Source: Gammaproteobacteria bacterium
GTDB taxonomy: Bacteria; Pseudomonadota; Gammaproteobacteria; Steroidobacterales; XN24
Direction: 5' to 3'
Assembly (NCBI GenBank): GCA_020341735.1
Contig: CP070833.1
Location: forward strand, 2,387,527-2,451,526
Length of the DNA: 64,000 nt
The notes beneath the pieces were generated by a model. The model was not told where the DNA came from and did not search any database. It saw only the letters and a program-made list of their open reading frames with translations. The translations under genes and the position numbers were made by a program. Positions within the stretch are counted from its first letter, which is position 1; each line of letters opens with the position of its first letter. Shown here piece after piece: positions 3,594-56,118 of this stretch.

Positions 3594-4073
3594 TCAACCG
3601 GCCCCTCTGCGGCTGATGTCCAGGAACTCGGCGCCCCTGAGTAACTTCCGGAAACCGGTGCGATCTACGTGAATCAGGTCTTCGTGGTCACCCGCTTCGA
3701 AATAGATGTCTTCTTTCTTCATCAGTGAACGATCAACCACGGTCGGGACCCGGTAGTCGGGGCCCAGCGGCGGGACCGCACCCTGCTCGCAGTCGAAAAA
3801 GACAGTCCCGAGTTCATCCTCGGTCATTAGCACGAGACCGGGCCGGTGCAGCAAAGCCTGCAGGCACTCCAGGTCCAGCACTCGATTGGCAGGCATTACG
3901 GCGAGCAGTGGACCGAGATCGTCCTTAAGTGCAACCGCCTTCGCCAATTCACCTTCGGCTATGTGGGCTTTGCGCGCAGTCTCAGCGCTGGTGGCTGAGT
4001 GATGATGGCGCAGGATTTGGAAATCGACGTCGGTCAGTGTCAGCGCAAAATCTACTGTATCGGCAATGCCCAT
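3594..4073 (-). CDS. YbaK/prolyl-tRNA-synthetase-associated (aminoacyl-tRNA deacylase-like) domain protein
   Basis: Internal ATG at 4073 (MGIADTVDFALTL...) gives 159 aa. The ...LGPLLAVMPANRVLDL...LMTEDELGTVFFDCEQGAVPPLG...IYFEAGDHEDLIHV pattern resembles the YbaK/EbsC family. The upstream 73 codons of the track ORF look like non-coding read-through. Confidence 0.7.
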   Translation of the reverse strand: MGIADTVDFALTLTDVDFQILRHHHSATSAETARKAHIAEGELAKAVALKDDLGPLLAVMPANRVLDLECLQALLHRPGLVLMTEDELGTVFFDCEQGAVPPLGPDYRVPTVVDRSLMKKEDIYFEAGDHEDLIHVDRTGFRKLLRGAEFLDISRRGAG

Positions 4074-4264
4074 GGCTCGTCTCCGCGTGCTCTTGGTCTC
4101 GTTGATGGCAATAAAAGTATAGCGCCGCATTGCGGGCAGACCCATCTGCGGTTCTCGCCAGCGAGACCCGGGCATGCCCGCCATCGGTTTTTTCGGGCCC
4201 TGATCCATCGTCCAGCGGCCGGCCGGGGAGCCCCTGCGGCACCCGCTGATTCGCTGCCAAACAT

Positions 4265-5044
4265 TTACCAGGGTATCTGTGAGCCGTCCCATGCGTAGAA
4301 CCCGCCGCTATCATCCGGCGCCAGTCTGTCGATGACGGACAGCAGCCTTCGGGCAGAATAATCACTGGAAAGTAGCTGCTCCTCGGGGACACCTGACTGG
4401 AAAGGTTTCGATAGAGACGTATCCACCGTCCCCGGGTGCAGCGCTACGACTATCGCACCCGGAGCGCGACGTTTCAGCTCGATCGCGGTGCAGCGCAACA
4501 GCTGGTTCAGAGCGGCTTTGGATGCACGATAGGCGTACCACCCTCCAAGTCGGTTGTCTCCGATGCTGCCTACGCGCGCGGAAATGGCGGCGAACACAGA
4601 ACGCTCCCGCCGAGGCAGCATCGGACCGAGATGGCGGGCCACCAGAGCGGGCCCGATTGCGTTGACCGCAATGATTCGTGCCAGATTGTCCTGCGAAAGA
4701 TCCTCCAGACGTCGCTCTGGAGACGTACGACCTGGCTCGTGCAGGATCCCGAAGGCACAGATTACCAGTCGGATCTGCGCCTGAGCATCGGCCAGTCGGG
4801 CTGCCAGGCCGGCGACTGATTGCTCCTGCAGCACGTCCACTGCAGATGCCACGACGGAGCCTCTGCCCTCTGCCACCAGCGCCTCGACGGTCGCTGAGTC
4901 CGGTGACCTACTGGCCACAACGGTCGAGTCGAATCGGCCGCTGGCCCCGATCTGCCGCACCAGTTCGGCGCCGATGCCGCCGGCGCCGAGTACTATGGCG
5001 GTTCCGCCGGAGGGCAATGATCGAAGCCGATTCTCGGTTGTCAT
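4265..5044 (-). CDS. Short-chain dehydrogenase/reductase (SDR) family oxidoreductase
   Basis: TAIVLGAGGIGAEL Rossmann motif and YRASKAALN catalytic Y-x3-K motif. 259 aa. Confidence 0.85.
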   Translation of the reverse strand: MTTENRLRSLPSGGTAIVLGAGGIGAELVRQIGASGRFDSTVVASRSPDSATVEALVAEGRGSVVASAVDVLQEQSVAGLAARLADAQAQIRLVICAFGILHEPGRTSPERRLEDLSQDNLARIIAVNAIGPALVARHLGPMLPRRERSVFAAISARVGSIGDNRLGGWYAYRASKAALNQLLRCTAIELKRRAPGAIVVALHPGTVDTSLSKPFQSGVPEEQLLSSDYSARRLLSVIDRLAPDDSGGFYAWDGSQIPW

Positions 5045-5153
5045 TTCAGTCGCGTTCCAAACACCACGGCAAAGAGGGTCTTCGGCGCTCCGACCATAGC
5101 CGATTCCGATCTCACATTTGCGGCTTCGGCTATGCTAGCCTTCCCGCACCCCG

Positions 5154-5600
5154 ATGAAACAGATCCTCGACAGATTCAAGAATGGACTGCACGGCTTCAG
5201 GGAACGCTCCCATCAAAAGCAGTTCGTCGATGCAGTGATGGCAGCAGCAGCGCTGGTCGCCCTGGCGGACCGCGATCACAGGCTATCAGAGCTGGTGACG
5301 CGCGACCGTGTGCTGTCGCGCCTTGGTGAGCTAAAGCCGGTGAGCGTGCGCGACGCGGTGGAGACCTATGACCGCCACGCACGCGCACTGATCGATGATC
5401 CCGACCGAAGCCGGCAGGAGATATTCAAGCTCCTGGGGGAATTCTCTGGGGACAGCGAAGAAGTGACCACCCTGGTTCGGGCCTGCCTCGCCATCGGTCA
5501 CGCGGACACGGATTTTAGCCCCAGAGAACGAAGCGTGGTCGAGCAGATTTGTGGCGCAATCGGAGTCGATCCCGGCGAACTCGGGGTCTACGACATCTGA
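5154..5600 (+). CDS. TerB-family (tellurite-resistance TerB-like) protein
   Basis: 148 aa. Resembles TerB domain proteins: FVDAVMAAAALVALADRDHRLSE...ACLAIGHADTDFSPRERSVVEQICGAIGV. Confidence 0.65.
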   Translation: MKQILDRFKNGLHGFRERSHQKQFVDAVMAAAALVALADRDHRLSELVTRDRVLSRLGELKPVSVRDAVETYDRHARALIDDPDRSRQEIFKLLGEFSGDSEEVTTLVRACLAIGHADTDFSPRERSVVEQICGAIGVDPGELGVYDI

Positions 5601-6370: not shown

Positions 6371-9004
6371 ATGGGTGGGAGATTCGGCCGGATGACACTG
6401 ATTTCAGAAGGATCGCGTTCAAGGCGCGGCGGATGGCTGGCCGTGTTTATGATGGCGGGCCTCACGATATCCGCTCCTGGACCGGCGCAGGAGACAACGC
6501 CCCCACAGCCTGTGGCACCGGCAGCGGAGTCTCCGCCAGAGCCGACGGCGATCGCCGCGGCAGATATTCCGACGCGCGCCGAAGCCGAGAAGACCTGGCT
6601 GCGCGGCGTCGCCGCACTTACTGCGCCCCAGCAGCGAACAACCGAGATCGAAGAACAACTGAAGTCGATGCGGGACGAGATCGAGCGGCTGCAGTCGGTT
6701 GACCTGAACTCGGAGGCGATCGGTCAGCGGACGCTGCGCGACCAGCGCGGGCGCTGGGCCCTGGTCGACTCTCGCTTGACAGGCTGGCAGGACACGATCG
6801 CCCGGCGTGCCCAGGAGATCGATACGCAGACGACCACGCTGAAGGTTCGCCGGGTTGATTGGGAACTGACACTCAAATCGGCGAGAGAAGCCGATCTGCC
6901 CGATGCTCTGGTGGAGCAGGTCCAGGAGATGCTCTCCGCGTTCGACGAACTTGACAAGTTGCTGCGCGAGCGGCGTGCCCCGTTGCTGACGCTGGGCAGC
7001 GTCATCTCGGTGCTGAATGTCCAGGCCGACGACGCCCTGGATGCGATCAAGACCGCGGAGGCTCAGCAGAGGGGGCGCCTGCTGGTCCGCGATGCCGAGC
7101 CGCTCTGGCGACTGCTGAGCCCCAGAGAACAGACGCAAGAGGATGCGGAGCAGGAACCCGTCGAGACGGACACGATCGAGGTCGCGCAGGAGTTGATCGG
7201 CGGCGAGATATCGAGCGCCTGGAACCAGAACCTCGCATCGATCACGCATTACGTCGAAGACAACACGGATCGCGTACTGACCCACATCATCCTATTCCTC
7301 GCGCTGGCCGTCACGTTGTGGCTGCTGCAGAAACGTCGCGAGGTCTGGGCGCCGGGCGCGGCCACTCCCCGGGAGGGTGTCGTCGACATCTTCGCCCACC
7401 CGATCGCATCCGCTGCCCTGCTGGTCCTGGTCGCCCCCCGGCTGGTGTATCCGGGAGCCCCGCTAGCCCTCTTCGACCTGATCCGCATGATGGCCGTACT
7501 GCCCATCATCGCCCTATTGGGCAAAGTGCTCGCACCGCGCCAACATCCCTCCATGTACGCGCTGTTGGGCCTGTTCGCGCTGGATATGGCGCGCGGACTG
7601 GTCGATACACAACCATTTTCGAGCCGCATGTCCTTACTCGTGATCACGTTGCTGGGCCTTGCGGTGATTATCTGGACCCTTGCTACGCGGCGAGATCTTG
7701 CGGGCAACCTGGAAGGTGCCTGGGCGCGGGTCGCCCACCTCGTGGCGCGAGTATCACTCGTCACGTTGACCGCCAGCATAATCGCCAATATCGTTGGCAT
7801 CGTCAGTCTCGCCGAGCTCCTCGGCGAAGGCACGATCACCACGATCTTCGCCGGTTTCGGGCTGCATGCGCTGCTGCTCGTGCTGCTCGGACTGCTCGAC
7901 GTCATCCTGCAGTCGCCGGCCGGCTCTGGCATCCGCGCTTTCAAGCGTAATGCGGACATCGTAAGAGAGCGTGTTAGCGCCGGTCTGTACCTGATAGCAC
8001 TGGCGGCCTGGATATTTGCGATGCTGAGTTTCTTCAGGCTCTGGCCGTTCGTCCGGGATCACACCGCCGGACTGTTCTCGTCGAGCCTGTCCGTGGGCAC
8101 TTTCCAGATCAGCCTCGGAGACGTCGTCGCATTCATCGTCGCCCTCTGGGTGGGCACGCTGCTGTCCCGTTTCATTCGGTTCATTCTCGCCGAGGACGTG
8201 TTCACGCGGGTCCGACTCCCGCGGGGCGTGCCAGCCACGATCAGCATGATGGTCAACTACGGGATCATCACCGTCGCCTTCTTCATCGCCCTGGCCGTGG
8301 CGGGATTCGATCTCACCCGATTCGCACTTATCGCGGGTGCATTATCGGTAGGCATTGGTTTTGGACTGCAGAATGTCGTCAACAACTTCGTGTCGGGACT
8401 GATCCTGGCGTTCGAGCGACCGATCTCTGTAGGCGATTCCGTAGAAGTCGGGCCACTGATGGGCAGGGTTAATCGAATCGGCATCCGCTCAAGCGTTGTA
8501 CGCACTTTCGACGGCTCCGAGGTCATCGTGCCGAATGCGGATTTCATCTCCAAGGAGGTGATCAACTGGACGCTGTCCGACGTCAATCGACGCCTGATCG
8601 TTCCGGCCGGCGTCGCTTATGGCTCGAACCCGCACCAGGTGCTGGAACTTCTGGTCAAGGTCGCCCGGACCCATCCGGACGTGTTGCAGGAGCCTGAACC
8701 GTACGCGTTGTTCATCGGCTTCGGAGCCAGTTCACTGGACTTCGAACTGCGCGCATGGTGCGACTTCAGTGAGGGGCTGCGGATAAAGACCGAACTCAAT
8801 CTCGGCATCCACGACGCGCTCAAGGAAGCCGGGATCGAGATTCCCTTCCCGCAACGGGATCTCCACCTCAGGTCCGTCGATGCGCAAGCGGGACAAGCGA
8901 TCTCCGGGCGAGCGTTGTTACGCTATCCGAATCAGAAGGACGCGGCCGGCGACCAGGAAATCGTCCAGGCAGACACGTCCGTCATCCCGGAAGCAGAAGA
9001 GTAG
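6371..9004 (+). CDS. Large mechanosensitive ion channel, MscS family (MscK/KefA-like)
   Basis: 877 aa. Signal/TM segment, then a long periplasmic coiled-coil region, then multiple TM helices. C-terminal MscS core (GALSVGIGFGLQNVVNNFVSGLILAFERPISVGDSVEV...GRVNRIGIRSSVVRTFDGSEVIVPNADFIS). Confidence 0.9.
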   Translation: MGGRFGRMTLISEGSRSRRGGWLAVFMMAGLTISAPGPAQETTPPQPVAPAAESPPEPTAIAAADIPTRAEAEKTWLRGVAALTAPQQRTTEIEEQLKSMRDEIERLQSVDLNSEAIGQRTLRDQRGRWALVDSRLTGWQDTIARRAQEIDTQTTTLKVRRVDWELTLKSAREADLPDALVEQVQEMLSAFDELDKLLRERRAPLLTLGSVISVLNVQADDALDAIKTAEAQQRGRLLVRDAEPLWRLLSPREQTQEDAEQEPVETDTIEVAQELIGGEISSAWNQNLASITHYVEDNTDRVLTHIILFLALAVTLWLLQKRREVWAPGAATPREGVVDIFAHPIASAALLVLVAPRLVYPGAPLALFDLIRMMAVLPIIALLGKVLAPRQHPSMYALLGLFALDMARGLVDTQPFSSRMSLLVITLLGLAVIIWTLATRRDLAGNLEGAWARVAHLVARVSLVTLTASIIANIVGIVSLAELLGEGTITTIFAGFGLHALLLVLLGLLDVILQSPAGSGIRAFKRNADIVRERVSAGLYLIALAAWIFAMLSFFRLWPFVRDHTAGLFSSSLSVGTFQISLGDVVAFIVALWVGTLLSRFIRFILAEDVFTRVRLPRGVPATISMMVNYGIITVAFFIALAVAGFDLTRFALIAGALSVGIGFGLQNVVNNFVSGLILAFERPISVGDSVEVGPLMGRVNRIGIRSSVVRTFDGSEVIVPNADFISKEVINWTLSDVNRRLIVPAGVAYGSNPHQVLELLVKVARTHPDVLQEPEPYALFIGFGASSLDFELRAWCDFSEGLRIKTELNLGIHDALKEAGIEIPFPQRDLHLRSVDAQAGQAISGRALLRYPNQKDAAGDQEIVQADTSVIPEAEE

Positions 9005-9209
9005 CGGCCAGCAGCGTGTCGCCTAGCCGCCGAAACCGTCTTTTGCAGGCCGGGCATTACTGCCTGGGCGGCCACCGGGAGTCCGCCCGATGGCCAACAC
9101 TGTCTACCCAACGCGCGGTCGATCACCGGTCGCAGGTCACCGACTTATCGACAAACATTGGTCTGCCGTGGACACGCGACCAGGTCTTGTCAGGCGCCAG
9201 GGCTTGGGC

Positions 9210-10343
9210 ATGAAACTGACGGGATTCGACATCATCATCACAGGACGGCGCCGGGCAGGCCCGATTTCTGCCGGCGCGGTGCGTCATGCTAGTAGCCAGA
9301 GCCTGTTCGTCGGACTGCGTGATGATGTCGGCACCATCGGTTGGGGAGAGACCTGTCTAGATCCCGGATCCAGCGGCGACGCGATGAGTTCCGCCCGGGA
9401 TGCGCTCCGGCAGACGATTCTCCCGGCGCTTCTCACGCTGAAGATCGACGGGCTGGAGGATGCATACAGGATGGCGCAAGACCTGCTGCATGAACTCCCT
9501 TGCGAAATGCAGCCGGCATTCTGTGCTGCGGAGTTGGCGCTTCTGGACATCGCGGGACGGCGATTCCGTCGCAGCGCGGGCCGAATCCTGGGCCCGACCG
9601 TGCGAACTTCGATCCACTACAGTGGCCTGATCTCGACGACCGACGAGGCCGAGCTCGTGAGGGACGCGGGCAACCTGCGTCGATCGGGAATCAGGCACGT
9701 CAAAATGTGTCTGACCGACGATATCCAGACAAACCTCAGGATGATGGACATCGTGCGCAATCGGCTTGGCGCCGAGGCGGAGATCCGGGTGCGTGCGGCC
9801 GCGGGCTGGACGGCGGATGAAGCCATGGCACAGCTGGAAGCGCTTGCTCCCTATCATCTGGCGGGAATCGAGCAGCCCGTGTCGCCTGATGACGTGGGCG
9901 GCCTGCGGCAAGTCACCCGAGCCGGACTGGCGCCGGTAATCGCCGATGATGCCCTGGTGACTGTCGATGACGCTGCACGCCTGATCGAAGCGCAAGCGTG
10001 CGATATTTTCAGTATCCGTCCGGCGAAGTGTGGAGGATTGATCAACTCTGCACGGATCCACAGCATGGCGAGAACGGCCGGTCTCGGATGCCAACTTGGA
10101 GCCCTGTCAGGCGAGGGTGCCCTGCTTATGGCTGCAGGATTGCAGTTCGCCTGCCGGTCTGAAGGCATCCGCTGGGCGGAAAGCGGTCTCGATCCGCTCC
10201 CGGAAGAAAGCGCGATCGCGGATCCGGACCTGACCCTCGGCCCGGGCGGCCTGGCGCAGCCGCTGACTGGCCCCGGCCTTGGAGTCAGAATCCGGCTGGA
10301 ACGACTGATGGAGTCCGCCGCCCAGAAGATCTCGGTCGGATAG
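9210..10343 (+). CDS. Enolase-superfamily enzyme (mandelate racemase/muconate lactonising enzyme family; dipeptide epimerase/OSBS-like)
   Basis: Internal ATG at 9210 (MKLTGFDII...). Motifs: IGWGE, HVKMCL (KxK-type), AGIEQPV, IADDAL, IRPAKCGG. Confidence 0.82.
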   Translation: MKLTGFDIIITGRRRAGPISAGAVRHASSQSLFVGLRDDVGTIGWGETCLDPGSSGDAMSSARDALRQTILPALLTLKIDGLEDAYRMAQDLLHELPCEMQPAFCAAELALLDIAGRRFRRSAGRILGPTVRTSIHYSGLISTTDEAELVRDAGNLRRSGIRHVKMCLTDDIQTNLRMMDIVRNRLGAEAEIRVRAAAGWTADEAMAQLEALAPYHLAGIEQPVSPDDVGGLRQVTRAGLAPVIADDALVTVDDAARLIEAQACDIFSIRPAKCGGLINSARIHSMARTAGLGCQLGALSGEGALLMAAGLQFACRSEGIRWAESGLDPLPEESAIADPDLTLGPGGLAQPLTGPGLGVRIRLERLMESAAQKISVG

Positions 10344-10602: not shown

Positions 10603-10644
10603 TTGACACAGATCAATGCGGTGCACAAGTCACTCCCCTAATAT
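10603..10644 (+). promoter_or_regulatory. Predicted class II FNR/ANR-dependent promoter: FNR box TTGACacagATCAA (10603-10616) plus -10 TAATAT (10639-10644)
   Basis: The box matches TTGAT-N4-ATCAA at 9 of 10 positions. Its centre is about 41.5 nt upstream of a TSS expected 6-7 nt after the TAATAT hexamer. It lies in the only strongly AT-rich stretch of the window (about 10510-10690), upstream of the cytochrome cluster. Confidence 0.6.
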
Positions 10645-10838
10645 TATCATCGTTTGCTAATTTAGATATTCTGAATTGAATGTCCTGATGCCTGCAACAG
10701 GCGTCACAAGGGGAGAAGAAGAGATGTTTTTGCGCCGGCAGCCACGGGCCCGGACCGCATCGCGGTCAGGGCCCGTTTGCGTTGCGACGCCGTTCGACAA
10801 AGTTCCCGATTACCAGAAACGAGCAAGGAGCTAGGGAA

Positions 10839-11198
10839 ATGAAAACGCCACTTGGAATCATGACCGCAGCACTGGTCGGATTCATCGCTCTGGGTCTGAC
10901 CGGCATCCCGATATCGCCGGCACAGGGCGCAGACGGCAAGGAGCTGTATCGCGAGTACTGCAAGACCTGTCACGAAGCCGATTCACCTCACGGTGAATAC
11001 ACGCCGATGTCGCTGATCCAGGATCAGTGGACACGTTTCTTCGACAAAAAGTATGTCCGCAAACACAAGGACGTCATCGACGAGAAACATGGCGGCAAAC
11101 CAGTGACCGAGACGATCTCCCCGGACGATCTCGAGCTGATCAAAGAGTTCTCGATCAAAGGGGCCGCCGACTCGGAACACCCGATGACCTGCGGCTGA
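10839..11198 (+). CDS. Periplasmic monohaem c-type cytochrome
   Basis: SD AAGGAG upstream of ATG 10839. Signal peptide MKTPLGIMTAALVGFIALGLTGIPISPAQG. Single CKTCH haem motif. 119 aa. Confidence 0.85.
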   Translation: MKTPLGIMTAALVGFIALGLTGIPISPAQGADGKELYREYCKTCHEADSPHGEYTPMSLIQDQWTRFFDKKYVRKHKDVIDEKHGGKPVTETISPDDLELIKEFSIKGAADSEHPMTCG

Positions 11199-11214
11199 CA
11201 GGGAGGACAAGATA

Positions 11215-13041
11215 ATGTTACGCAAATTCCTTATAACAACTGCGGCGGCGGCGGTGCTTCCACTGTCCGCCCCGACGACCGCGTGGGCCGACAGCCAGAC
11301 GCTGACGGCCGATGAACTGATGCAGCAGGTGGAATGGCTGCAGGTGCAGATGAGCACCCTTCTCCAGCAGATAGAAGAGATCAAGACGCAGTCAGGAGAG
11401 GCCTCCAGCGCGGCAAATACTGCCGCGAAGAAGGCTGATGATCTCGAGGAGAGGACGGCTTATCTGGAAGATGACGTCGAAGATCTGGACGACCGACTGA
11501 TGGGTCCGGAGCGCCATACGGCTTTGGACAGCATCCGCTTCAGCGGAGACTTCCGCACCCAGGCGCACAGCATCTCTGTGGACATGGCTGATCGCATCGA
11601 CGGAATCAACGTGCAGAAAGACCTTGTGAATACGCTGTTCTACTTCGGTGCCACGAACCAACCACCCATGACGCCAGACCTGAGCGACGTGGATCAATTC
11701 ATCGCACAGAACTACGACGGCTATCTGTACTACCTGGATAACGTCGTCACGTTCGACTTCATCAAACAACAGGTCGAAGGCCTGATGCAGCAGGATCCGG
11801 CGCTGGCCGAACAACTGCTCGGACTGCTGGCTTCTCAGGAAGACAGCTTCATACCGGGATACAACCACGACAACGACATCGTCTATACCACGAGACTGCG
11901 CATGAACATGGCCGCAGACGTGGCCGAAGACGTCGTGTTCGAAGGCCGTCTCGGCATGTACAAGACCTGGGGCGACTCCAGCAACGTGCAGGTATTCAAC
12001 GGCCAGCCGACTTCCATCGGCTGGGACGGCACGACGGTTGGCGTACCGCCCAGCTCGGACATCATCCGGCTGGAGCGGGGTTACTTCACCTGGCGAGACA
12101 TCGCCGACCTGCCGATGTACCTCTCCGTCGGCCGCCGGCCCTCGACCGGTGGCGCACCGCTCAACTTCCGCGAAGACGAGCCCCGTGGCGGCACCCCGAT
12201 CGGCGCGCTGTTCAACTACCAGTTCGACGGCATCACCTGGGGCTACCACTTCAGCGAGAAGTCGACCTTCCGCATCTGCTACGGCCTCGGTTACGAGTCC
12301 GAGTGGGGTAACGGCAGCGAGTACAAGCCGCCGTCCGACCGTCTGGACGACACCTGGTTCGTGGGCGCCGTCTGGGACGTCTGGAATGACGAAGACATGC
12401 TGGTACAGCTCAATGTCGCCACCGCCCAGGATATTGGCGATGGCTTCAACGGCCTGACCGTGCTGCCCTTTGACCCGGTCACGGGGCAGGACGCGCCACC
12501 GGCGGTGATCCGTTACACGCCGACCGACAATATCGGCAACATGAACCTGGCAGGGCTGGTGATGGTACGCCACGACGGACCGTTCGACTGGTTCGCCAGC
12601 GTCAACTACTCCGAATCGGATCCCAACGATGTCACCACTCCGTTCGGTGGCATGTTCGCCGACCCGTTCGAGACGCCGGATGACGAAGACGGTCACATGT
12701 ACTACCTGGGCGCGCGCTACAACTTCCCGAACGAGAAGACCAAGCTCGGCCTCGAGTTCAACCACGGGTCGGAATACTGGTTCAACTTCGCGCTGGCGGA
12801 AGACGACTTCCTCGGCCCGAAGACCAGCGTCCGTGGCGACGTCTGGGAGGTCTACCTGACCCATCGGATCCGCGACAAGTTCATATTCAAGATCGACTAC
12901 ATCGATTACTCGTATGATTACTCCGGCTCCGGCTGGATCCTGGGTGCACCCAAGGATCTGGGGGACAACGGCAACATCCTGGCAACGCCGACCTACGACG
13001 ACGCCAGCAAGTTCATGGCCAGCTTCACCGCTCGCTTCTGA
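11215..13041 (+). CDS. Putative outer-membrane beta-barrel protein with N-terminal coiled coil (resembles my recollection of the DUF3373 family)
   Basis: Signal peptide ...APTTAWA/DS. Heptad-like acidic coiled coil (LMQQVEWLQVQMSTLLQQIEEIKTQ...DDLEERTAYLEDDVEDLDDRL). Long Gly/Tyr/Asp-rich region with alternating hydrophobicity. C-terminal ...SFTARF ends in Phe, as in outer-membrane barrels. 16 nt after the cytochrome c stop. Confidence 0.72.
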   Translation: MLRKFLITTAAAAVLPLSAPTTAWADSQTLTADELMQQVEWLQVQMSTLLQQIEEIKTQSGEASSAANTAAKKADDLEERTAYLEDDVEDLDDRLMGPERHTALDSIRFSGDFRTQAHSISVDMADRIDGINVQKDLVNTLFYFGATNQPPMTPDLSDVDQFIAQNYDGYLYYLDNVVTFDFIKQQVEGLMQQDPALAEQLLGLLASQEDSFIPGYNHDNDIVYTTRLRMNMAADVAEDVVFEGRLGMYKTWGDSSNVQVFNGQPTSIGWDGTTVGVPPSSDIIRLERGYFTWRDIADLPMYLSVGRRPSTGGAPLNFREDEPRGGTPIGALFNYQFDGITWGYHFSEKSTFRICYGLGYESEWGNGSEYKPPSDRLDDTWFVGAVWDVWNDEDMLVQLNVATAQDIGDGFNGLTVLPFDPVTGQDAPPAVIRYTPTDNIGNMNLAGLVMVRHDGPFDWFASVNYSESDPNDVTTPFGGMFADPFETPDDEDGHMYYLGARYNFPNEKTKLGLEFNHGSEYWFNFALAEDDFLGPKTSVRGDVWEVYLTHRIRDKFIFKIDYIDYSYDYSGSGWILGAPKDLGDNGNILATPTYDDASKFMASFTARF

Positions 13042-13057
13042 TCAGGAGGAAGGCGCC

Positions 13058-14467
13058 ATGCGGATCAAGACGCTGGCGACTCTCGTGATCCTCGGAATCG
13101 CCGCCTCCTCAACGGGGGCGGCAGCCGAGTACTCTCACGAGAAGCACGTCAAGGAATACAAAGGCACGCGTACCTGTATCAAGTGCCACAGGGACGAAGC
13201 CGAGAACTTCTTCCACTCGCAGCACTATCAGTGGCAGGGCGCGACACCCGACCTGGTGAACACGGATGGTGAGCGCTTCGGCAAATTGTCGATGGTGAAC
13301 GACTTCTGCACCAACCCGTCCGGTCCGCAGTGGATTGGAGAGGTTAAGAACGCAGAAGGCAAGGTTCTCGCCAAGGGTTGCTCCAAGTGTCACGCCGGTC
13401 TCGGCAAGGTGCCGGGCGATGAGGTGACCAAGCAGGAACTTGAGAATATCGACTGCCTCATATGCCACACCTCCGGCTATCGGCGCGACCTGTATGCCAC
13501 CGAAGACGGTGGCTGGGAGTGGAAACCGATCCTGTGGAAGAACCAGGAAGGGATGAACTCGGTGGCGCGGAGGATCTCGCAGCCGACACGGACGATGTGT
13601 CTGCGTTGCCACGCGGCCTCGGGCGGTGGCCCGAACTTCAAGCGGGGCGATATCGAGTACGCCCTCAAGGATCCACCGCGGGATTTCGACGTGCACATGT
13701 CGGCCGACGGCCACGACATGGACTGCGTCGCCTGTCATGGCGGAGACAAGCACCGGGTACGCGGAAGGGGATCGGACCTGGCCGCGACAGACTCGCCGGA
13801 GAACCCGCTAAGCTGCTCGGGTGAATGTCACAGCGAGACGCCGCATGAAGTGGCCGCGATCGACTCGCATACGGACCGCGTGTACTGCACGACCTGTCAT
13901 ATCCCGACCTTCGCCAAGGACGAACCGACGGACATGCGACGCGACTGGTCGGATATCCATTTCTCCGAGGAGAAGGGCAAGTACACCTATGCTGTCGAAC
14001 TGCAGCAGAATGTGGTTCCGGAGTACGCCTGGTTCAACGGCGCGAGTTTCTCGCAAGTGCCAGGCAAGGCGGTAACGCATGACGATGAAGGCAATGTGAT
14101 CATCTCGCTACCGGACGGATCGCGTGCCGATCCGGACGCTCGCATCCACGCGTTCAAGGTCCATGCGGGTCGACTGCCGATATTAGACGACAGGAAGTGG
14201 CTGGTCCCGATCGCCACCGAGGAGTTCTATGCCCACGGTGACATCGACAGGGCGGTCAGGGAAGCAGCACACCTGTTCTACGGACTCGACGACATCCAGT
14301 ACAGCTGGAGCGACACTATCCGCTACATGGGCATCTTCCACGAGGTCACGCCGAAGGAGGATGCGCTCGGGTGTCTCGACTGCCACCGTCCTGGAGGCAG
14401 GATGGACTGGCAGGCATTGGGATATGACGGCGATCCGCTCGAGGAGCGTCTGCAAGCATCCCGATGA
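13058..14467 (+). CDS. Secreted multihaem c-type cytochrome (7 CxxCH + 1 CxxxCH; octahaem class)
   Basis: SD AGGAGGA then ATG 13058. Signal peptide MRIKTLATLVILGIAASSTGAAA. Haem motifs: CIKCH, CSKCH, CLICH, CLRCH, CVACH, CSGECH, CTTCH, CLDCH. 469 aa. Confidence 0.9.
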   Translation: MRIKTLATLVILGIAASSTGAAAEYSHEKHVKEYKGTRTCIKCHRDEAENFFHSQHYQWQGATPDLVNTDGERFGKLSMVNDFCTNPSGPQWIGEVKNAEGKVLAKGCSKCHAGLGKVPGDEVTKQELENIDCLICHTSGYRRDLYATEDGGWEWKPILWKNQEGMNSVARRISQPTRTMCLRCHAASGGGPNFKRGDIEYALKDPPRDFDVHMSADGHDMDCVACHGGDKHRVRGRGSDLAATDSPENPLSCSGECHSETPHEVAAIDSHTDRVYCTTCHIPTFAKDEPTDMRRDWSDIHFSEEKGKYTYAVELQQNVVPEYAWFNGASFSQVPGKAVTHDDEGNVIISLPDGSRADPDARIHAFKVHAGRLPILDDRKWLVPIATEEFYAHGDIDRAVREAAHLFYGLDDIQYSWSDTIRYMGIFHEVTPKEDALGCLDCHRPGGRMDWQALGYDGDPLEERLQASR

Positions 14468-14488
14468 TGCCTCCTTGCTCGGGGCGGA

Positions 14489-14524
14489 GCCGGCGGGTCA
14501 TCGAGACCCGCCGGCTATTATTTG
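14489..14524 (+). terminator. Rho-independent terminator after the cytochrome cluster
   Basis: Perfect 11-bp stem GCCGGCGGGTC / GACCCGCCGGC with loop ATCGA (14489-14515), followed by TATTATTTG. Confidence 0.75.
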
Positions 14525-15007: not shown

Positions 15008-15817
15008 TTACTGCGTCGCGGTCTCGCGGGTAAGCCCACCGAAATCGAACAAACCCGGGTCCATAAGATGTGAGGGCACCACATTCTTTAAGCCCGCAAG
15101 GATGGATTCCACCCGGTTGGGGTTCTCGATCTCCCAGCGACGCAGCATTTTCTTCACCTGTTTGCGCTGCAGATTCTCCTGTGAACCACACAGGTTGCAC
15201 GGGATGATGGGAAATTCACGGGCATGCGCGTAGCGTGCGAGGTCTCGCTCGCGACAATAGGCAAGCGGTCGGATGACGATGTGCCGGCCGTCGTCGGACC
15301 GGAGCTTCGGCGGCATGGCCTTGAGCTTGCCGCCAAAGAACATGTTCAGAAACAGCGTTTCCATAATATCGTCGGCGTGATGACCGAGCGCAATCTTGGT
15401 GAACCCTTCCTGCGCCGCGAACGTGTAGAGCGCGCCGCGCCGCAGGCGGGAGCACAATCCGCACATTGTTTTGCCCTCCGGGATGACCCGGGAGACGACG
15501 CTGTAAGTGTCCTGTTCCAGAATGTGGAAGGGTACGTCCAGAGACTGCAGATAATCAGGCAGCACGTGCGCGGGGAACCCGGGCTGTTTCTGGTCCAGGT
15601 TGACCGCGACCAGATCGAAATGCACCGGAGCGCTGCGCTGCAGACTCATCAGCAGGTCCAGTAGCGTATAGCTGTCCTTGCCGCCGGACAGGCAGACCAT
15701 GACCTTGTCGCCCTCCTCGATCATGCGGAAGTCCTCGATCGCCTTCCCCGTCAATCCGCGGAGGCGCGCCTGCAGTCGGCGTGCATTGTTTGAGATCCTC
15801 ACGGCTGCGGTGCTCAT
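15008..15817 (-). CDS. ttcA: tRNA 2-thiocytidine(32) synthetase TtcA
   Basis: Collinear with E. coli TtcA as I recall it: [43 protein letters not shown]...[13 protein letters not shown]...ALGHHADD...[11 protein letters not shown] at 15817 preferred over the TTG at 15829. Confidence 0.93.
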
Positions 15818-16054
15818 ATGCCAAGCCAAGTGTTGCAGAAAGACGGGAATTCTAACCGGCCGAGCCGCCGGTCAGGCAAACCGTGCCGACCCTCCCGGAG
15901 CGATAGCCGACAGAAACATTCGGTAATTTCGACCTATTTACCTCCGTAACGCCTTTGATCTTGGGGTCTGGGAAGAAGACATCCACGGCGCTGAACACAC
16001 GCTGAAGTCTGCAGCCCTCACCTATACTCGCGGACATAGCAGAGGAATCTGTTG

Positions 16055-17422
16055 ATGAAGCGATTCATGGGCGCGCTCGCGACCTACCCGGCTCGGGCGC
16101 TGGCGGGTTGGTACGGCATCCTTGTCGTCTCGGGCACACTTTTGCTCCTGTTACCGGCATGCCGGGCCGCAGACACCTCCCCGATGTCCTTCTCAGACGC
16201 GCTGTTTACAGCGACGAGTGCGGCCTGCGTGACCGGATTGGTGGTCAGGGACGTGGCGGAGTTCTCGGCGCTCGGCCAGGGCGTCATCCTCGCCCTCATC
16301 CAGCTCGGCGGTATCGGCATCATGACCGTCGCAACCCTGGTCGTGGTTCAGCTGACCGGCCGCCAGACCCTGCGGCAGCTGGTCCTGGCGCGGGAGAGCC
16401 TCGGCGTGGGGCTGCACGAGGACCTGGGTCGCGTGCTGGTTCGGGTGATCTCGGTAACCGTCGTTTTCGAACTGATTGGGGCGGTTGTGCTGGCGGCGTA
16501 TCGCGTCTCCGACCTGAGCTTGCCGCAAGCCGCCTGGTGGGGCCTGTTTCACTCCGTTTCCGCATTCTGCAACGCCGGCTTCGCGCTGTCGCCAGACAAC
16601 CTGGCACCCTGGGTGGATAGCGCATTGGTCAATCTGACCGTCATCGGACTGGTCGTGCTCGGGGGTCTGGGGTTCCCTGTCCTGGTCGACCTGTTTTCGC
16701 GCCGCCGGAGTCGGCCGCTGCGCTGGCGAGAATTGCATTTCCATAGCCAGCTCGTCATCACGGCCTCCGCGGCACTGCTGCTGATCGGCACGCTGGCTAT
16801 CCTTGCGCTGGAATATTCCAATGCGTTCGCGGGTCAAGGACTGGCACAGTCCACGATGACCGCGTTTTTTCACAGCGCTTCGGCGCGCACCGCCGGATTC
16901 TCGACGCTGGATATTGCCGGGTTCAGTAACGCGACCCTTTTCGTACTGATTCTGCTGATGTGGGTCGGCGGAGGTCCCGGCTCGGCCGCCGGCGGAATAA
17001 AGGTAACGACGATTGCCGTCCTGGTCCTCTATGGCTACGGGAGAATGCGCGGCCGCCAAGAGATCGGCCTGTTCCACCACCGGATCAGCACCCACTCTGT
17101 AGCGACGGCCGCAGTCGTCGTCATCGCCGGCATCACGCTGATCGTCACCAGTCTCGTGTTCATGCTGATGGCAGAGCAATCAGGAATTCCACACAATGGG
17201 GGCGCCGATTTTCTGGATATCACGTTCGAGACCTTCTCGGCATTTTCGACTGTAGGACTGTCCATGGGCATCACCCCGGAGCTGGGCGAGCTCGGCCGAT
17301 TTATCACAGTGCTTACCATGTACGTCGGCCGCATCGGACCTCTGATAGTGTTTACTCTTCTGTCACGACGGCCCCATGGCCCCGCCATCAGACATCCGGA
17401 AGCGGAGATTCAAATTGGCTGA
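16055..17422 (+). CDS. trkH: TrkH/KtrB-family potassium uptake membrane subunit
   Basis: 455 aa polytopic protein with repeated pore-loop-like motifs (TATSAACVTGL, SAFCNAGF, SARTAGFS, STVGLSMG). Confidence 0.88.
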   Translation: MKRFMGALATYPARALAGWYGILVVSGTLLLLLPACRAADTSPMSFSDALFTATSAACVTGLVVRDVAEFSALGQGVILALIQLGGIGIMTVATLVVVQLTGRQTLRQLVLARESLGVGLHEDLGRVLVRVISVTVVFELIGAVVLAAYRVSDLSLPQAAWWGLFHSVSAFCNAGFALSPDNLAPWVDSALVNLTVIGLVVLGGLGFPVLVDLFSRRRSRPLRWRELHFHSQLVITASAALLLIGTLAILALEYSNAFAGQGLAQSTMTAFFHSASARTAGFSTLDIAGFSNATLFVLILLMWVGGGPGSAAGGIKVTTIAVLVLYGYGRMRGRQEIGLFHHRISTHSVATAAVVVIAGITLIVTSLVFMLMAEQSGIPHNGGADFLDITFETFSAFSTVGLSMGITPELGELGRFITVLTMYVGRIGPLIVFTLLSRRPHGPAIRHPEAEIQIG

Positions 17423-17879
17423 CAAATCACGATTCATAGTTCTCGGACTGGGCAGGTTCGGAGCCACGCTCGCCCGGCGGCTGGCCGCCGATGGTCACCG
17501 GGTTACCGGTATAGACATCTCCGAGGCCGCGGTGCGACCCCTGGAAGAGGAGTTGGACGAGGCACTGGTGGGTGATGCGACCGACAAGGAAATCCTCGAA
17601 GCAACAGATCTCGGGAACGCGGATGCGGTGGTTATTTCCATGGGTGACGAACCTTTGCGCAACATCATCGCTGCCATGCACGTAGTCGAACTCGGGGCGA
17701 CCCGCATCCTGGCCCGGGGGACCGACGCGGTACACGCGCGGATCCTGAGAAAGCTCGGGGATATCGACGTCATCCTTCCGGAGCAGGATATGGGCGCCTA
17801 TGTGGCCGAGGCTCTTAACAGCCCCCTGTCCCTCGGCCAGCAGAGGGCACGGTCCGTGAATGAATCAGGCGAGGAATGA
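17415..17879 (+). CDS. TrkA-N/KtrA-like RCK (NAD-binding) regulatory subunit, short form
   Basis: TTG at 17415 overlaps the trkH stop (ATTGGCTGA) and gives MADKSRFIVLGLGRFGATLARRL (GxGxxG Rossmann). Only about 154 aa, so the C-terminal RCK_C lobe seems absent. The start is uncertain; the track ORF starts at 17376. Confidence 0.75.
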   Translation: MADKSRFIVLGLGRFGATLARRLAADGHRVTGIDISEAAVRPLEEELDEALVGDATDKEILEATDLGNADAVVISMGDEPLRNIIAAMHVVELGATRILARGTDAVHARILRKLGDIDVILPEQDMGAYVAEALNSPLSLGQQRARSVNESGEE

Positions 17880-53648: not shown

Positions 53649-55055
53649 GTGGTCGATCTAGATATGGTCTTTCTGGCGCGTCTGCAGTTCGCATTCACGA
53701 TCAGTTTCCACATCATTTTCCCGGCCTTTACGATAGGGCTCGCCAGCTATCTGGCCATGCTCGAGGGCTTGTGGCTGAAGACAGGCCGGGACGTCTATCT
53801 CCAGCTATATCGATTCTGGGTAAAGATCTTCGCCGTCTCCTTCGGCATGGGTGTCGTGTCCGGACTGGTGATGAGCTATCAGTTCGGCACGAACTGGAGT
53901 CTGTTCTCCGAGATTACCGGCAACGTCCTGGGTCCGTTACTCGGCTACGAAGTCCTGACGGCTTTCTTCCTCGAGGCGTCCTTCCTCGGCATCATGCTGT
54001 TCGGCTGGAATCGCGTCGGCCCGCGACTGCATTTCATCTCGACGGTCGTCGTAGCCGTTGGAACGCTTTTCTCGGCCTTCTGGATCCTCGCAGCAAATAG
54101 CTGGATGCAAACTCCCGCCGGACACGAGATACGTGACGGGATCTTCCACGCAACCGACTGGATCGAGGTCATCTTTAACCCTTCGTTCCCTTACCGATTC
54201 AGCCACATGGTGCTTGGAGCCTATTGCACGACCGCCCTCGTCGTCGGAGCAGTCGGTGCATTTCACCTGCTGCGCGGTACCAATCGGGAACCCGCTCGGG
54301 TCATGACGCACATGGCGCTTGGATTCCTTGCAATCGTCGTTCCAGCTCAGATGATCGCCGGACACGAGCACGGAGCAAACGTCTACGAGCATCAGCCAGT
54401 GAAGCTCGCTGCCATGGAAGGGCACTGGGAAACCTATGAGAACAACGCTCCGCTGGTGTTGGTCGGATTTCCGAATGAAGAGACGGAGAGCAATGACTAT
54501 GCGCTGTCGATTCCGAAGGTGGGCAGCCTGATTGTGACCGGCTCGTTCGACGGTAAGATCCGCGGCCTGAAGGAATGGCCGGCCAGCGAACGCCCGCCTG
54601 TCGGATGGGTGTTCTGGAGTTTCCGGGTGATGGTCGGTCTCGGAATGGTCATGTTGTTTATTGGCTTGTTTGGCGCTGTGCTCGTCTGGCGACGTAACGT
54701 CGAGACGCAACGTTGGTTCTTGCGCCTGTGCATCGCAGCAGGACCAGCCGGATTCATCGCGGTCATCGCCGGGTGGTTTACCGCGGAGATCGGCCGGCAG
54801 CCCTACACGGTCTATGGCCTGCTGCGAACCGTTGACTCGGTGTCTCCGGTCACCGCGGGCGCGGTTGGTACATCGTTGATCGTTTTCATCTTCGCCTACA
54901 GCATCGTGTTTGCGGCCGGGATGTACTACATATTGAAACTTGCAAAGCGCGGACCGGAGGGCCCGGCCCATCCGCCAAGCGCGAAACCGGACGAACCCGT
55001 GCTGGGCGTGCCACTCGCGCTCGGCAGGGAGGATTCCGCAGAGGCGGCTGGCTAG
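53649..55055 (+). CDS. cydA: Cytochrome bd-type (cyanide-insensitive-like) ubiquinol oxidase subunit I
   Basis: SD GGAGGA then GTG 53649. LARLQFAFTISFHIIFPAF...GWFTAEIGRQPYTVYGLLRT hallmark motifs. The short Q-loop region suggests the CioA type. Confidence 0.92.
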   Translation: MVDLDMVFLARLQFAFTISFHIIFPAFTIGLASYLAMLEGLWLKTGRDVYLQLYRFWVKIFAVSFGMGVVSGLVMSYQFGTNWSLFSEITGNVLGPLLGYEVLTAFFLEASFLGIMLFGWNRVGPRLHFISTVVVAVGTLFSAFWILAANSWMQTPAGHEIRDGIFHATDWIEVIFNPSFPYRFSHMVLGAYCTTALVVGAVGAFHLLRGTNREPARVMTHMALGFLAIVVPAQMIAGHEHGANVYEHQPVKLAAMEGHWETYENNAPLVLVGFPNEETESNDYALSIPKVGSLIVTGSFDGKIRGLKEWPASERPPVGWVFWSFRVMVGLGMVMLFIGLFGAVLVWRRNVETQRWFLRLCIAAGPAGFIAVIAGWFTAEIGRQPYTVYGLLRTVDSVSPVTAGAVGTSLIVFIFAYSIVFAAGMYYILKLAKRGPEGPAHPPSAKPDEPVLGVPLALGREDSAEAAG

Positions 55056-55086
55056 ACCAGCACGAATAGCACGAGGGTCACAGGCT

Positions 55087-56118
55087 ATGGACTGGATCGA
55101 TCTGCCCACGACCTGGGCCGCACTCCTGGCGGTGGCGGTGTTCATGTACATCCTGCTCGACGGAATGGATCTGGGTGTCGGCATCTTGTTTCCGTTCGCC
55201 AGTACAGACCAGGACCGGGACATCATGATGAATTCCATCGCGCCGGTCTGGGACGGGAACGAGACCTGGCTGGTTCTGGGCGGTGGCGGTCTGTTTGCCG
55301 CGTTTCCCAAGGCATATGCGGCACTGATGCCTGCCGTTTACATGCCCATCGGATTCATGCTCACCGCATTGATCTTCCGCGGCGTGGCTTTCGAATTCCG
55401 CTTCAAGGCTAGCGGCTCAGGGCAGCGAGTCTGGGATCAGGCGTTCCATTGGGGCTCCGTGATCGCAACATTTTCTCAAGGGCTGGTGCTCGGAGCGATC
55501 GTTCAGGGCGTGACCCTGGACGATGGGCGCTTCGCGGGTGGTATGTTCGACTGGCTGACGCCATTCAGCTTTGTCGTCGGCTGCGCCATGGTCTGGGGCT
55601 ACGTGCTCCTGGGCAGCACCTGGATGGTCATCAAGACAGAGGGTGAACTTCTGGAGTGGGCTCGGCGCGTCGGCTTGATCTCGGCGGGTGTTGTGCTGCT
55701 GATGATGGCCGTGGTGAGCTTCTGGGTGCCGGCACTGGATGCTGCCGCAGCCGATCGTTGGGGCCTTCGGTATCCGGACGTGGACTGGGCTAAGCTGCTG
55801 CCACTGACACCCATACCGCTACTGGTGGTCGTCGCCTTCTGGAAGCTGGTATCGAGCCTGCGGAAAGACACCACCTATGCGCCGCATATCTGGGCCTCGT
55901 CGTTATTCCTTCTCGGATTCATCGGTCTGATGGTCGGTATCAATCCGTATCTCGTCCCCTACGACCTGACCATTTATGACGCGGCCGCCGCACCGAAGTC
56001 GCAGGCTCTGTTGCTGGTGGGCGCGGTCGTCATGTTGCCCATCATTCTGGGTTACACGGCTTATGTGTATTGGATTTTCCGTGGCAAGGTGAAAGCGGAT
56101 GCCGGCTATCACGCCTGA
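55087..56118 (+). CDS. cydB: Cytochrome bd-type ubiquinol oxidase subunit II
   Basis: MDWIDLPTTWAALLAVAVFMYILLDGMDLGVGILFP...WDGNETWLVLGGG, typical of CydB/CioB. Confidence 0.92.
   Translation: MDWIDLPTTWAALLAVAVFMYILLDGMDLGVGILFPFASTDQDRDIMMNSIAPVWDGNETWLVLGGGGLFAAFPKAYAALMPAVYMPIGFMLTALIFRGVAFEFRFKASGSGQRVWDQAFHWGSVIATFSQGLVLGAIVQGVTLDDGRFAGGMFDWLTPFSFVVGCAMVWGYVLLGSTWMVIKTEGELLEWARRVGLISAGVVLLMMAVVSFWVPALDAAAADRWGLRYPDVDWAKLLPLTPIPLLVVVAFWKLVSSLRKDTTYAPHIWASSLFLLGFIGLMVGINPYLVPYDLTIYDAAAAPKSQALLLVGAVVMLPIILGYTAYVYWIFRGKVKADAGYHA

Follow-up and report, generated by a model that had tools for sequence, protein, structure and literature searches.

A standard OTR-family operon with an Omp50-type outer membrane barrel in an uncultured gammaproteobacterium

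The operon and its described relatives

The octahaem tetrathionate reductase (OTR) of Shewanella, whose crystal structure is available as 1SP3, is soluble on purification and has haem II as its catalytic haem (PMC4484225). Here we describe an operon coding for a monohaem cytochrome c, an outer membrane β-barrel and an octahaem cytochrome of the OTR family, located at positions 10839-14467 in a 64,000-nucleotide (nt) stretch of DNA from an uncultured gammaproteobacterium (contig CP070833.1), further on called the window. A protein 96% identical to 1SP3 is encoded behind a cytochrome c of 108 amino acids (aa) and a 574-aa protein of the DUF3373 family, and the counterpart locus in S. oneidensis is SO_4142-SO_4143-SO_4144 (otr). 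SO4142 is annotated as a periplasmic monohaem cytochrome c, a transcriptome study found SO4142 and otr to be co-regulated, and the locus has been assigned to the Fnr regulon, the published list of which contains otr, SO4142 and SO4143. The same arrangement of the trio was also found in Shewanella eurypsychrophilus and in Marinobacter.

Other described systems resemble parts of this locus. A barrel gene beside the gene of a periplasmic multihaem cytochrome, together with a link to anaerobic respiration, is shared with MtrCAB, PioAB and the Geobacter Pcc systems. Omp50 of Campylobacter jejuni (PDB entries 10aw and 10dn; TCDB 1.B.60/1.B.62) is an outer membrane protein with a homologous barrel, in which a coiled coil is likewise followed by strand 1. 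MmcA of Methanosarcina is a heptahaem conduit from the same OTR-related superfamily of cytochromes. TsdA/TsdB and SoxXA-SoxYZ have in common with the locus the tetrathionate/thiosulfate couple and a conserved Cys in or near a c-type haem protein.

Compared with these systems, the locus in the window is a standard three-gene operon of the OTR family in an uncultured gammaproteobacterium, and not a new type of conduit. It has the composition and gene order of the Shewanella locus (there a cytochrome c of ~108 aa and a DUF3373 barrel of ~574 aa ahead of the octahaem OTR), and consists of the following features:

10839-11198, + strand: gene 1, Sec-exported monohaem cytochrome c, 119 aa
11215-13041, + strand: gene 2, outer membrane β-barrel of the DUF3373/Omp50 family, 608 aa
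13058-14467, + strand: gene 3, Sec-exported octahaem cytochrome c of the OTR family, 469 aa
14488-14526, + strand: intrinsic terminator closing the operon, with a hairpin stem at 14488-14516 followed by a T-rich tail

Both gaps, between genes 1 and 2 and between genes 2 and 3, are 16 nt long. Shine-Dalgarno sequences GGAGG (gene 2) and AGGAGG (gene 3) are positioned 8 nt 5' of the ATG, and AAGGA was found ahead of gene 1. The terminator has a 12-bp stem with 10 G-C pairs and a folding energy of -35.8 kcal/mol (z = -6.1); the first gene past it (15008-15829) lies on the opposite strand and matches in position the ATP_bind_3 gene of locus L001, one of the related loci described below. Sec-type signal peptides were read from the translations of all three products and a lipobox from none of them. 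Homologues numbering in the hundreds were retrieved for every one of the three proteins, the lowest E-values being 0.

An earlier note, made from the letters of this DNA and its translated reading frames, had described three tightly spaced genes bracketed by an FNR-type site and a strong terminator. The 16-nt gaps are exact, all three genes lie on the + strand, the upstream site agrees with TTGAT-N4-ATCAA at nine of ten positions (10603-10616), and the terminator is strong, with a G+C-rich stem. The features that the note ascribed to the products were also recovered in the translations: a signal peptide and a single CKTCH in gene 1; a signal peptide, an acidic helical segment, a β-rich remainder and a terminal Phe in gene 2; and a signal peptide with eight haem sites within 469 aa in gene 3, with the nuance that seven of them are CxxCH and one is CxxxCH. 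The note was unaware that the identical trio flanks the crystallised Shewanella-type OTR, which lowers the novelty of the locus.

To follow the trio through other genomes, a scan with one genome per species was performed. At least 575 genomes carry a relative of gene 3, and loci were analysed in the best 80. Co-occurrence of the three genes, which the note had put forward as a check, was observed in all informative loci: wherever enough upstream DNA was present, gene 1, gene 2 and gene 3 follow one another in this order and on one strand, with median gaps of ~28 nt (genes 1 and 2) and ~13 nt (genes 2 and 3). The hosts belong to about 10 phyla in all. They include Gammaproteobacteria, among them Woeseiaceae and Halieaceae, the acidobacterial Thermoanaerobaculia, Holophagae, Blastocatellia, Vicinamibacteria and Sulfomarinibacteraceae, and in addition Krumholzibacteriota, Eisenbacteria, Kiritimatiellae, Fibrobacteraceae and Planctomycetaceae. 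The closest relative of the trio is found in L007, an uncultured gammaproteobacterial genome bin, with 93-97% protein identity.

Pairwise distance matrices of the three proteins correlate with r of 0.67-0.76, and for genes 2 and 3, the sole pair permuted, none of 999 permutations reached the observed value. Mean pairwise identity is 54% for the barrel and 59% for the enzyme. The three genes are inherited as a single unit across phyla. In Desulfuromonas and Malonomonas, the partner genes are missing and OTR genes occur singly or in tandem.

One locus, L086, was considered as an exception in synteny and was rejected as such, gene 2 being disrupted there by an insertion-sequence transposase. In this gammaproteobacterial genome, the transposase (L086 5480-5990) stands in place of gene 1 and most of gene 2, and the last ~40 codons of the barrel precede an intact gene 3.

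The barrel, the octahaem enzyme and the monohaem cytochrome

Gene 2 is an outer membrane β-barrel of the Omp50/DUF3373 family, with about 18 strands and an N-terminal coiled coil. A search with hidden Markov models aligned its residues 218-608 with PF11853 (DUF3373) at an E-value of 9e-103 and 344.9 bits, compared with a gathering score of 26.1, and the DUF3373 identity suggested in the earlier note is therefore correct. Omp50 ("50 kDa outer membrane protein" in 10aw/10dn) was matched with an E-value of 1e-13 using the single sequence and 9e-24 using a 46-sequence profile. The DUF3373 family is filed in TCDB under putative 18-strand porins, family 1.B.62. Omp50 is said to have been described as a porin in 2000, and we know of no case in which it is encoded beside an OTR or a cytochrome.

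The signal peptide of gene 2 reads …TAWA|D and the protein ends in …TARF. Residues 26-105 form the acidic helical segment, with 20 D/E and 6 K/R. In the AlphaFold2 model, with a predicted local distance difference test score (pLDDT) of 74, helices span residues 32-105 and are accompanied by 18 β-strands, connected in a canonical topology, with short turns (2-6 residues) on the periplasmic side and long loops on the outside. Foldseek retrieved AlgE, OprB and general porins at probability 1.0, and the closest structural matches are channels with 16-18 strands. The strand count of ~18 and these matches agree with the membrane barrel assumed in the earlier note, as does the absence of any match to the MtrB_PioB model at E up to 0.1 with its statement that the barrel is unlike MtrB-type porins. 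A single large element distinguishes the barrel from Omp50:

residues 125-216, window 11587-11862, + strand: helical loop-1 insert of gene 2, 92 aa between strands 1 and 2, confidently modelled

This insert has no counterpart in Omp50 (profile positions 76-159), which is devoid of the ~85-92-aa helical segment between strands 1 and 2, and is present in the OTR-linked barrels of Shewanella and Marinobacter. With these barrels gene 2 shares only 37-39% identity, and its coiled coil is longer than that of Shewanella. Among relatives of gene 2, loops are conserved like strands (mean column identity of 0.83 in L2 and 0.85 in L3). Conservation is lowest in the coiled coil (0.34), and the stalk formed by it ranges in length from ~25 to 65 residues. 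Conserved loops and the helical insert might serve selectivity or protein contact. A crude strand-register analysis on the prediction assigned 13 basic and 6 acidic residues to the conserved lumen-facing positions of strands. The coiled coil gave weak alanine-zipper/Lpp-like matches, and the six chains of one Omp50 sequence found in 10aw and 10dn are compatible with trimers.

Gene 3, with a signal peptide reading …GAAA|EY, codes for a globular protein of ~50 kDa. Its best family is TIGR04315, the "tetrathionate reductase family octaheme c-type cytochrome" (E 7e-91), and 1SP3 was matched at 1e-57 from residue 37 to 464 of the query (19-436 of the chain), in accordance with the likeness to octahaem tetrathionate reductases suggested beforehand. 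The TIGR04315 score of 305.4 bits is under the curated NCBIfam cut-off of 375, and the protein belongs to a distinct clade, although its relative P0209, 59% identical to it, bears the OTR family name in NCBI. Other models gave lesser results: a weak match to TIGR04314, a DmsE-family score below the cut-off (37.8 bits versus 192), and a weak match to MtrC/MtrF domain II/IV (34.6 bits, cut-off 30).

For comparison of the two clades, 120 relatives of the gene 3 protein and 120 Shewanella-type OTRs were aligned jointly. Eight haem motifs, distal histidines, Lys76 and Cys84 are conserved at 95% or more in both clades, the eight haem sites being invariant among the aligned gene 3 relatives. The catalytic haem-2 motif is C108-C111-H112, and Lys76 and Cys84 align with the Lys and Cys of Shewanella-type OTRs; the window protein thus agrees with Shewanella OTR in its eight haem sites as well as in the Lys and the Cys of the active site. 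As read from this alignment, the catalytic centre, composed of haem 2, its predicted ligand Lys76 and the nearby Cys84, is intact. According to a preprint on MmcA, the catalytic site of OTR consists of the second haem motif, the lysine ligand and a cysteine, and these features have been lost from MmcA, which is related to OTR and functions as an electron conduit (bioRxiv 10.1101/2023.04.20.537704). Because gene 3 keeps both the haem-2 motif and the Lys that are lost in MmcA, its product looks like an enzyme and not like a wire.

Compared with Shewanella OTR, the clade of gene 3 is characterized by insertions of ~13 and ~10 residues next to the catalytic haem:

residues ~88-107, window 13319-13378, + strand: clade-specific insertion 1, directly before the haem-2 motif
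residues ~152-165, window 13511-13552, + strand: clade-specific insertion 2, after haem 3

These insertions could change the substrate pocket. They contain invariant Trp, Gly and Asn residues and are absent from Shewanella OTR. Several fixed substitutions are also present in the clade, for example R196 where Shewanella OTR has H172. The sixth haem motif of gene 3, C253-S-G-E-C257-H258 (window 13814-13831), is of the CxxxCH type and not CxxCH as in Shewanella. Its spacing varies within the clade, with CxxCH in 28, CxxxCH in 19 and CxxxxCH in 37 sequences, and is CxxCH in the Shewanella clade.

In gene 1, the signal peptide reads …SPAQG|ADGKE. The protein qualifies only narrowly as a class I cytochrome c, with Pfam scores of 27.3 for Cytochrome_CBB3 (cut-off 27) and 21.6 for Cytochrom_C (cut-off 21.3). 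Its profile matched PDB entries only in the CxxCH helix of class I cytochromes (CcoP and related), and in this search a relation to TsdA, SoxA or SoxY was not found. Matches to ClpS obtained in the same search were judged spurious. The structure model built from the single sequence was unusable (pLDDT 44). The family is small, with 152 matches among 1.8 billion representatives.

Conservation of residues was scored over 69 orthologues. C41, C44, H45, P56, Q63, W64, H76, A109, D111, P115 and C118 are invariant; His76 and Cys118 are thus present in 69 of 69 sequences, the latter almost always as the second-last residue. A Met that could act as the sixth ligand is not invariant, Met57 being found in 60 and Met116 in 59 of the 69. 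The C-terminus in the window reads …AADSEHPMTCG-COOH, where TCG represents residues 117-119 (window 11187-11195). The tail …AADSExPxTCG marks the family, including Shewanella, whose gene 1 ends in …AADSDQPQTCG, and some distant relatives have no terminal Cys. An invariant terminal Cys that is not accompanied by an invariant Met suggests either unusual (His/Cys) haem ligation or a carrier arm similar to that of SoxY. Gene 1 differs from TsdA/TsdB and SoxXA-SoxYZ in that sequence homology to them was not detected, and its C-terminal Cys, as far as the sequence indicates, recalls the C-terminal Cys arm of SoxY.

Proposed function and competing explanations

We propose that the operon codes for an anaerobically induced periplasmic reductase with a dedicated outer membrane channel and a dedicated cytochrome, the oxidant being tetrathionate or a related compound. 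This is, in our view, the most likely function because the trio represents the standard conserved operon of the OTR family, and we hold it with moderate confidence. The proposal is based on several features taken together: the induction observed in Candidatus Sulfomarinibacter, the solubility of Shewanella OTR, and the size, fold and topology of the barrel. Flieder et al. reported that otr of Ca. Sulfomarinibacter was upregulated 36-fold in sediment microcosms amended with tetrathionate, and that the protein is predicted to be periplasmic. The forward otr primer of that study matches exactly within gene 3 of the trio in L062, a Sulfomarinibacter genome, and the reverse primer is located 175 nt downstream on the opposite strand, with 3 mismatches; the tetrathionate-induced gene therefore belongs to the same clade and operon type. 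A parallel is offered by Dissulfuribacter, where a homologue of the molybdoenzyme tetrathionate reductase adjoins a gene for an OprO/P-like porin.

In the proposed mechanism, an FNR-type activator would turn the operon on at low oxygen, with the leader hairpin described below possibly adding control by attenuation. The barrel, probably a trimer held together by the coiled-coil stalk, would act as a substrate-specific channel and admit the oxidant of the enzyme to the periplasm at low ambient concentrations. The oxidant would most likely be tetrathionate or a related intermediate of the sulfur cycle, and haem 2 of gene 3 would be the site of its reduction. As the dedicated redox partner, gene 1 would receive electrons from the quinol-oxidising machinery and pass them on to the haem chain.

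Several observations weigh against this proposal. Tetrathionate is small enough for general porins, and for this reason a dedicated channel is not obviously needed; that the barrel is a channel, and a selective one, is what we infer from its predicted structure. In the 2023 preprint cited above (bioRxiv 10.1101/2023.04.20.537704), the natural substrate of OTR continues to be called cryptic, and OTR also reduces nitrite and hydroxylamine in vitro (PMC4484225). Because of the changes adjacent to haem 2 and the TIGR04315 score below the cut-off, the substrate may differ from that of Shewanella OTR. In gene 1, the pattern of an invariant terminal Cys without an invariant Met hints at a role beyond simple electron shuttling. 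The high conservation of the barrel, close to that of the enzyme (54% versus 59%), could equally reflect protein-protein contacts, and OTRs of Desulfuromonadia occur without partner genes.

The earlier note had left two alternatives, a conduit across the outer membrane or a periplasmic octahaem reductase with a dedicated outer membrane partner. The second is retained here, and the first is disfavoured and, of all explanations considered, appears the least probable. In such a conduit the barrel would sheath or dock the octahaem protein or gene 1, and electrons would pass through the outer membrane in either direction, with minerals, electrodes or partner cells on the other side. The side-by-side, co-evolving genes for a barrel and a multihaem cytochrome would fit this arrangement, as would the weak match of gene 3 to MtrC/MtrF domain II/IV (34.6 versus 30) and barrel loops far more conserved than is usual for porins. 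A DmsE-family decahaem cytochrome beside the trio in 15 loci brings some link to extracellular electron transfer, but this conduit-like pair, where present, is encoded separately from the trio. The MtrB barrel has 26 strands, and 20 to 26 would be needed to enclose a cytochrome. That of gene 2 has ~18, akin to the 16-18-strand AlgE, OprB and general porins, is unrelated in sequence to MtrB and PioB, and presents to the periplasm only short turns and the poorly conserved coiled coil. The cytochrome of the window, in contrast to those of MtrCAB, PioAB and Pcc, is a catalytic enzyme and not a wire with minimised peptide, being globular, ~50 kDa in size and in possession of the catalytic Lys-ligated haem that the conduit relative MmcA lost. 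The operon is furthermore devoid of a lipoprotein or surface cytochrome, and OTR genes stand alone in Desulfuromonadia. We also regard it as very unlikely that the operon serves detoxification or respiration of nitrogen oxides, with nitrite or hydroxylamine in place of a sulfur compound as the physiological substrate. FNR control would suit anaerobic nitrogen respiration, but these two substrates require no dedicated outer membrane channel, the sole in-situ-like expression evidence for the clade is induction by tetrathionate, and the hosts are mostly sediment taxa tied to sulfur cycling. A purely structural role, in which the barrel with its stalk tethers the reductase and the cytochrome under the outer membrane or links it to the cell wall and transports nothing specific, is quite unlikely. 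It would be in line with the position of the coiled coil in front of the barrel and its weak alanine-zipper/Lpp-like matches, with the trimer-compatible six chains of Omp50 in 10aw and 10dn, and with the tight co-divergence of barrel and enzyme. However, the stalk, variable in length and in sequence, is not what would be expected from a specific docking surface, conservation is found instead in the outer loops and lumen-facing residues, and both the TCDB placement among putative porins (1.B.62) and the reputed porin nature of Omp50 argue for transport.

The remaining explanations ascribe chemistry to gene 1. Its penultimate Cys could be a haem ligand (His/Cys, as known from TsdA and SoxA) or represent a SoxY-like arm that carries covalently bound sulfur to or from the OTR site; in a variant of this explanation, the trio may run in the oxidative direction (thiosulfate, polysulfide or sulfide) or process protein-bound sulfur taken up via the barrel. 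We consider a sulfur-handling complex of this kind rather unlikely. It would account for strict conservation of Cys118 and His76 (69/69 each) beside a variable Met57 (60/69) and Met116 (59/69), and for the …DSExPxTCG tail as a hallmark of the family that extends to Shewanella. Catalysis by TsdA offers a precedent, where an S-thiosulfonate forms on the haem-ligating Cys (PMC4423706), OTR itself has a conserved active-site Cys, and otr is located beside soxY and soxZ in lucinid symbionts (PMC11237559). On the other hand, gene 1 is interpreted here from its residues, as its sole model is unusable (pLDDT 44), His76 could provide simple bis-His ligation and leave another role to the Cys, induction by tetrathionate indicates the reductive direction, and the Cys is missing in some distant relatives. 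An extended possibility, which we judge unlikely, is that all three proteins make up one outer membrane-associated machine for an intermediate of the sulfur cycle. The barrel would then capture the substrate via its conserved helical loop-1 domain and loops, gene 1 would, like SoxY or TsdA, bind it covalently or use Cys118 to ligate its own haem, and sulfur and electrons would be handed to the Lys-haem/Cys site of the octahaem enzyme. If true, this would be a previously undescribed respiratory module for sulfur processing, and it would explain why the function of OTR stayed cryptic when the enzyme was studied alone.

Outside Desulfuromonadia, OTR is almost never encoded alone, and travels with an insert-bearing Omp50-type barrel and a Cys-ended cytochrome. 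Our literature search revealed nothing on these two partners of OTR and no link of DUF3373 to OTR, and searches on the structure of Omp50 and on a porin partner of OTR likewise returned nothing relevant. The interest of the locus lies in these unstudied partner genes, which open a concrete way to find out what OTR does natively. Abundant sediment groups are among its hosts (Woeseiaceae, Halieaceae, Thermoanaerobaculia/Sulfomarinibacter and Krumholzibacteria), and the module is therefore relevant for cryptic tetrathionate turnover in sediments and for that of further sulfur intermediates.

Regulation, leader region and genomic surroundings

The DNA upstream of gene 1 contains four features of possible regulatory significance:

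10603-10616, + strand: FNR/CRP-type palindrome TTGACacagATCAA, 9/10 relative to TTGAT-N4-ATCAA
10657-10666, + strand: conserved CTAATTTAGA, candidate -10 region, near invariant in the upstream alignment
10724-10834, + strand: candidate short upstream open reading frame (ORF) of 36 codons, preceded by GGGGAG and spanning the leader hairpin
10738-10785, + strand: terminator-like candidate attenuator ~60 nt ahead of gene 1, a leader hairpin rich in G+C with a T-rich run behind it

The core of the palindrome, TTGA..CA..TCA, is the best-conserved upstream element and is invariant in six gammaproteobacterial loci. Of 69 loci, 6 have an exact TTGA-N6-TCAA upstream of gene 1, compared with ~0.4 expected by our own estimate, and all 6 are gammaproteobacterial. 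The spacing of the FNR box depends on the -10 region chosen: with CTAATTTAGA it would be centred near -61, and with the non-conserved TAATAT at 10639-10644 at -41.5. A scan for sigma-70 promoters also gave TGCACA-17-TATCAT, which was rejected as a match at chance level (2 found versus 2.0 expected) that is not conserved. In the acidobacterial locus L004, a gene for a sigma-54 activator with a PAS domain (3621-5375) is located directly upstream of the trio. Since this activator is found there and the FNR-type box only in Gammaproteobacteria, regulation differs between phyla.

The leader of the operon is ~170-230 nt long. Its hairpin, with a folding energy of -35.5 kcal/mol (z = -4.9), is conserved, 8 pairs being changed on both sides among 5 loci, and is followed by a TTTTTTT run in L009 and L001. 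Judged by these features, it looks like a transcription attenuator. A Shine-Dalgarno-like motif and a start codon at the position of the upstream ORF are present in relatives as well. The ORF and the hairpin were also observed upstream of gene 1 in L007, L008, L009 and L001. An Rfam search assigned the leader to no family, the only result being a sub-threshold chance match to ncS01 (19 bits, gathering score 58).

Genes flanking the trio code for an MscS-type channel, an enolase-superfamily protein, an ATP_bind_3-family protein, TrkH/TrkA, a flavodoxin-like protein and MsrA. As none of them is respiratory, they were rejected as functional partners. The flanks at 6371-10343 and 15008-17879 have the same order in gammaproteobacterial L001, where the barrel is 63% identical and one extra TonB-dependent receptor makes the only difference. 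Because these housekeeping genes are syntenic in L001, the trio can be described as a stable chromosomal insert among them. No other multihaem cytochrome was found in the window. The only other ORF with CxxCH is at 54937-56115 (393 codons between stops), and it has one motif.

Downstream of the trio and in the same orientation, 15 loci, mainly of Acidobacteriota, have genes for a DmsE-family decahaem cytochrome and a GSU2204-family protein, which were not found in the window itself. The two may represent a porin-cytochrome pair that is distinct from the OTR module but linked to it, and if electrons have to cross the outer membrane in those organisms, this pair would be a more conventional means than the trio. 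The decahaem cytochrome is of the GSU2203 family, and its GSU2204-family partner is a large CxxCH protein. The pair is located in L006 (9535-12587), L026, L028, L029, L031, L064, L065, L068, L069, L071, L078 and L081, and is partial in L020, L054 and L075. The GSU2204-family frame runs through an in-frame TGA, likely coding for selenocysteine, into a 133-aa tail with the porin-like end …GWTF.

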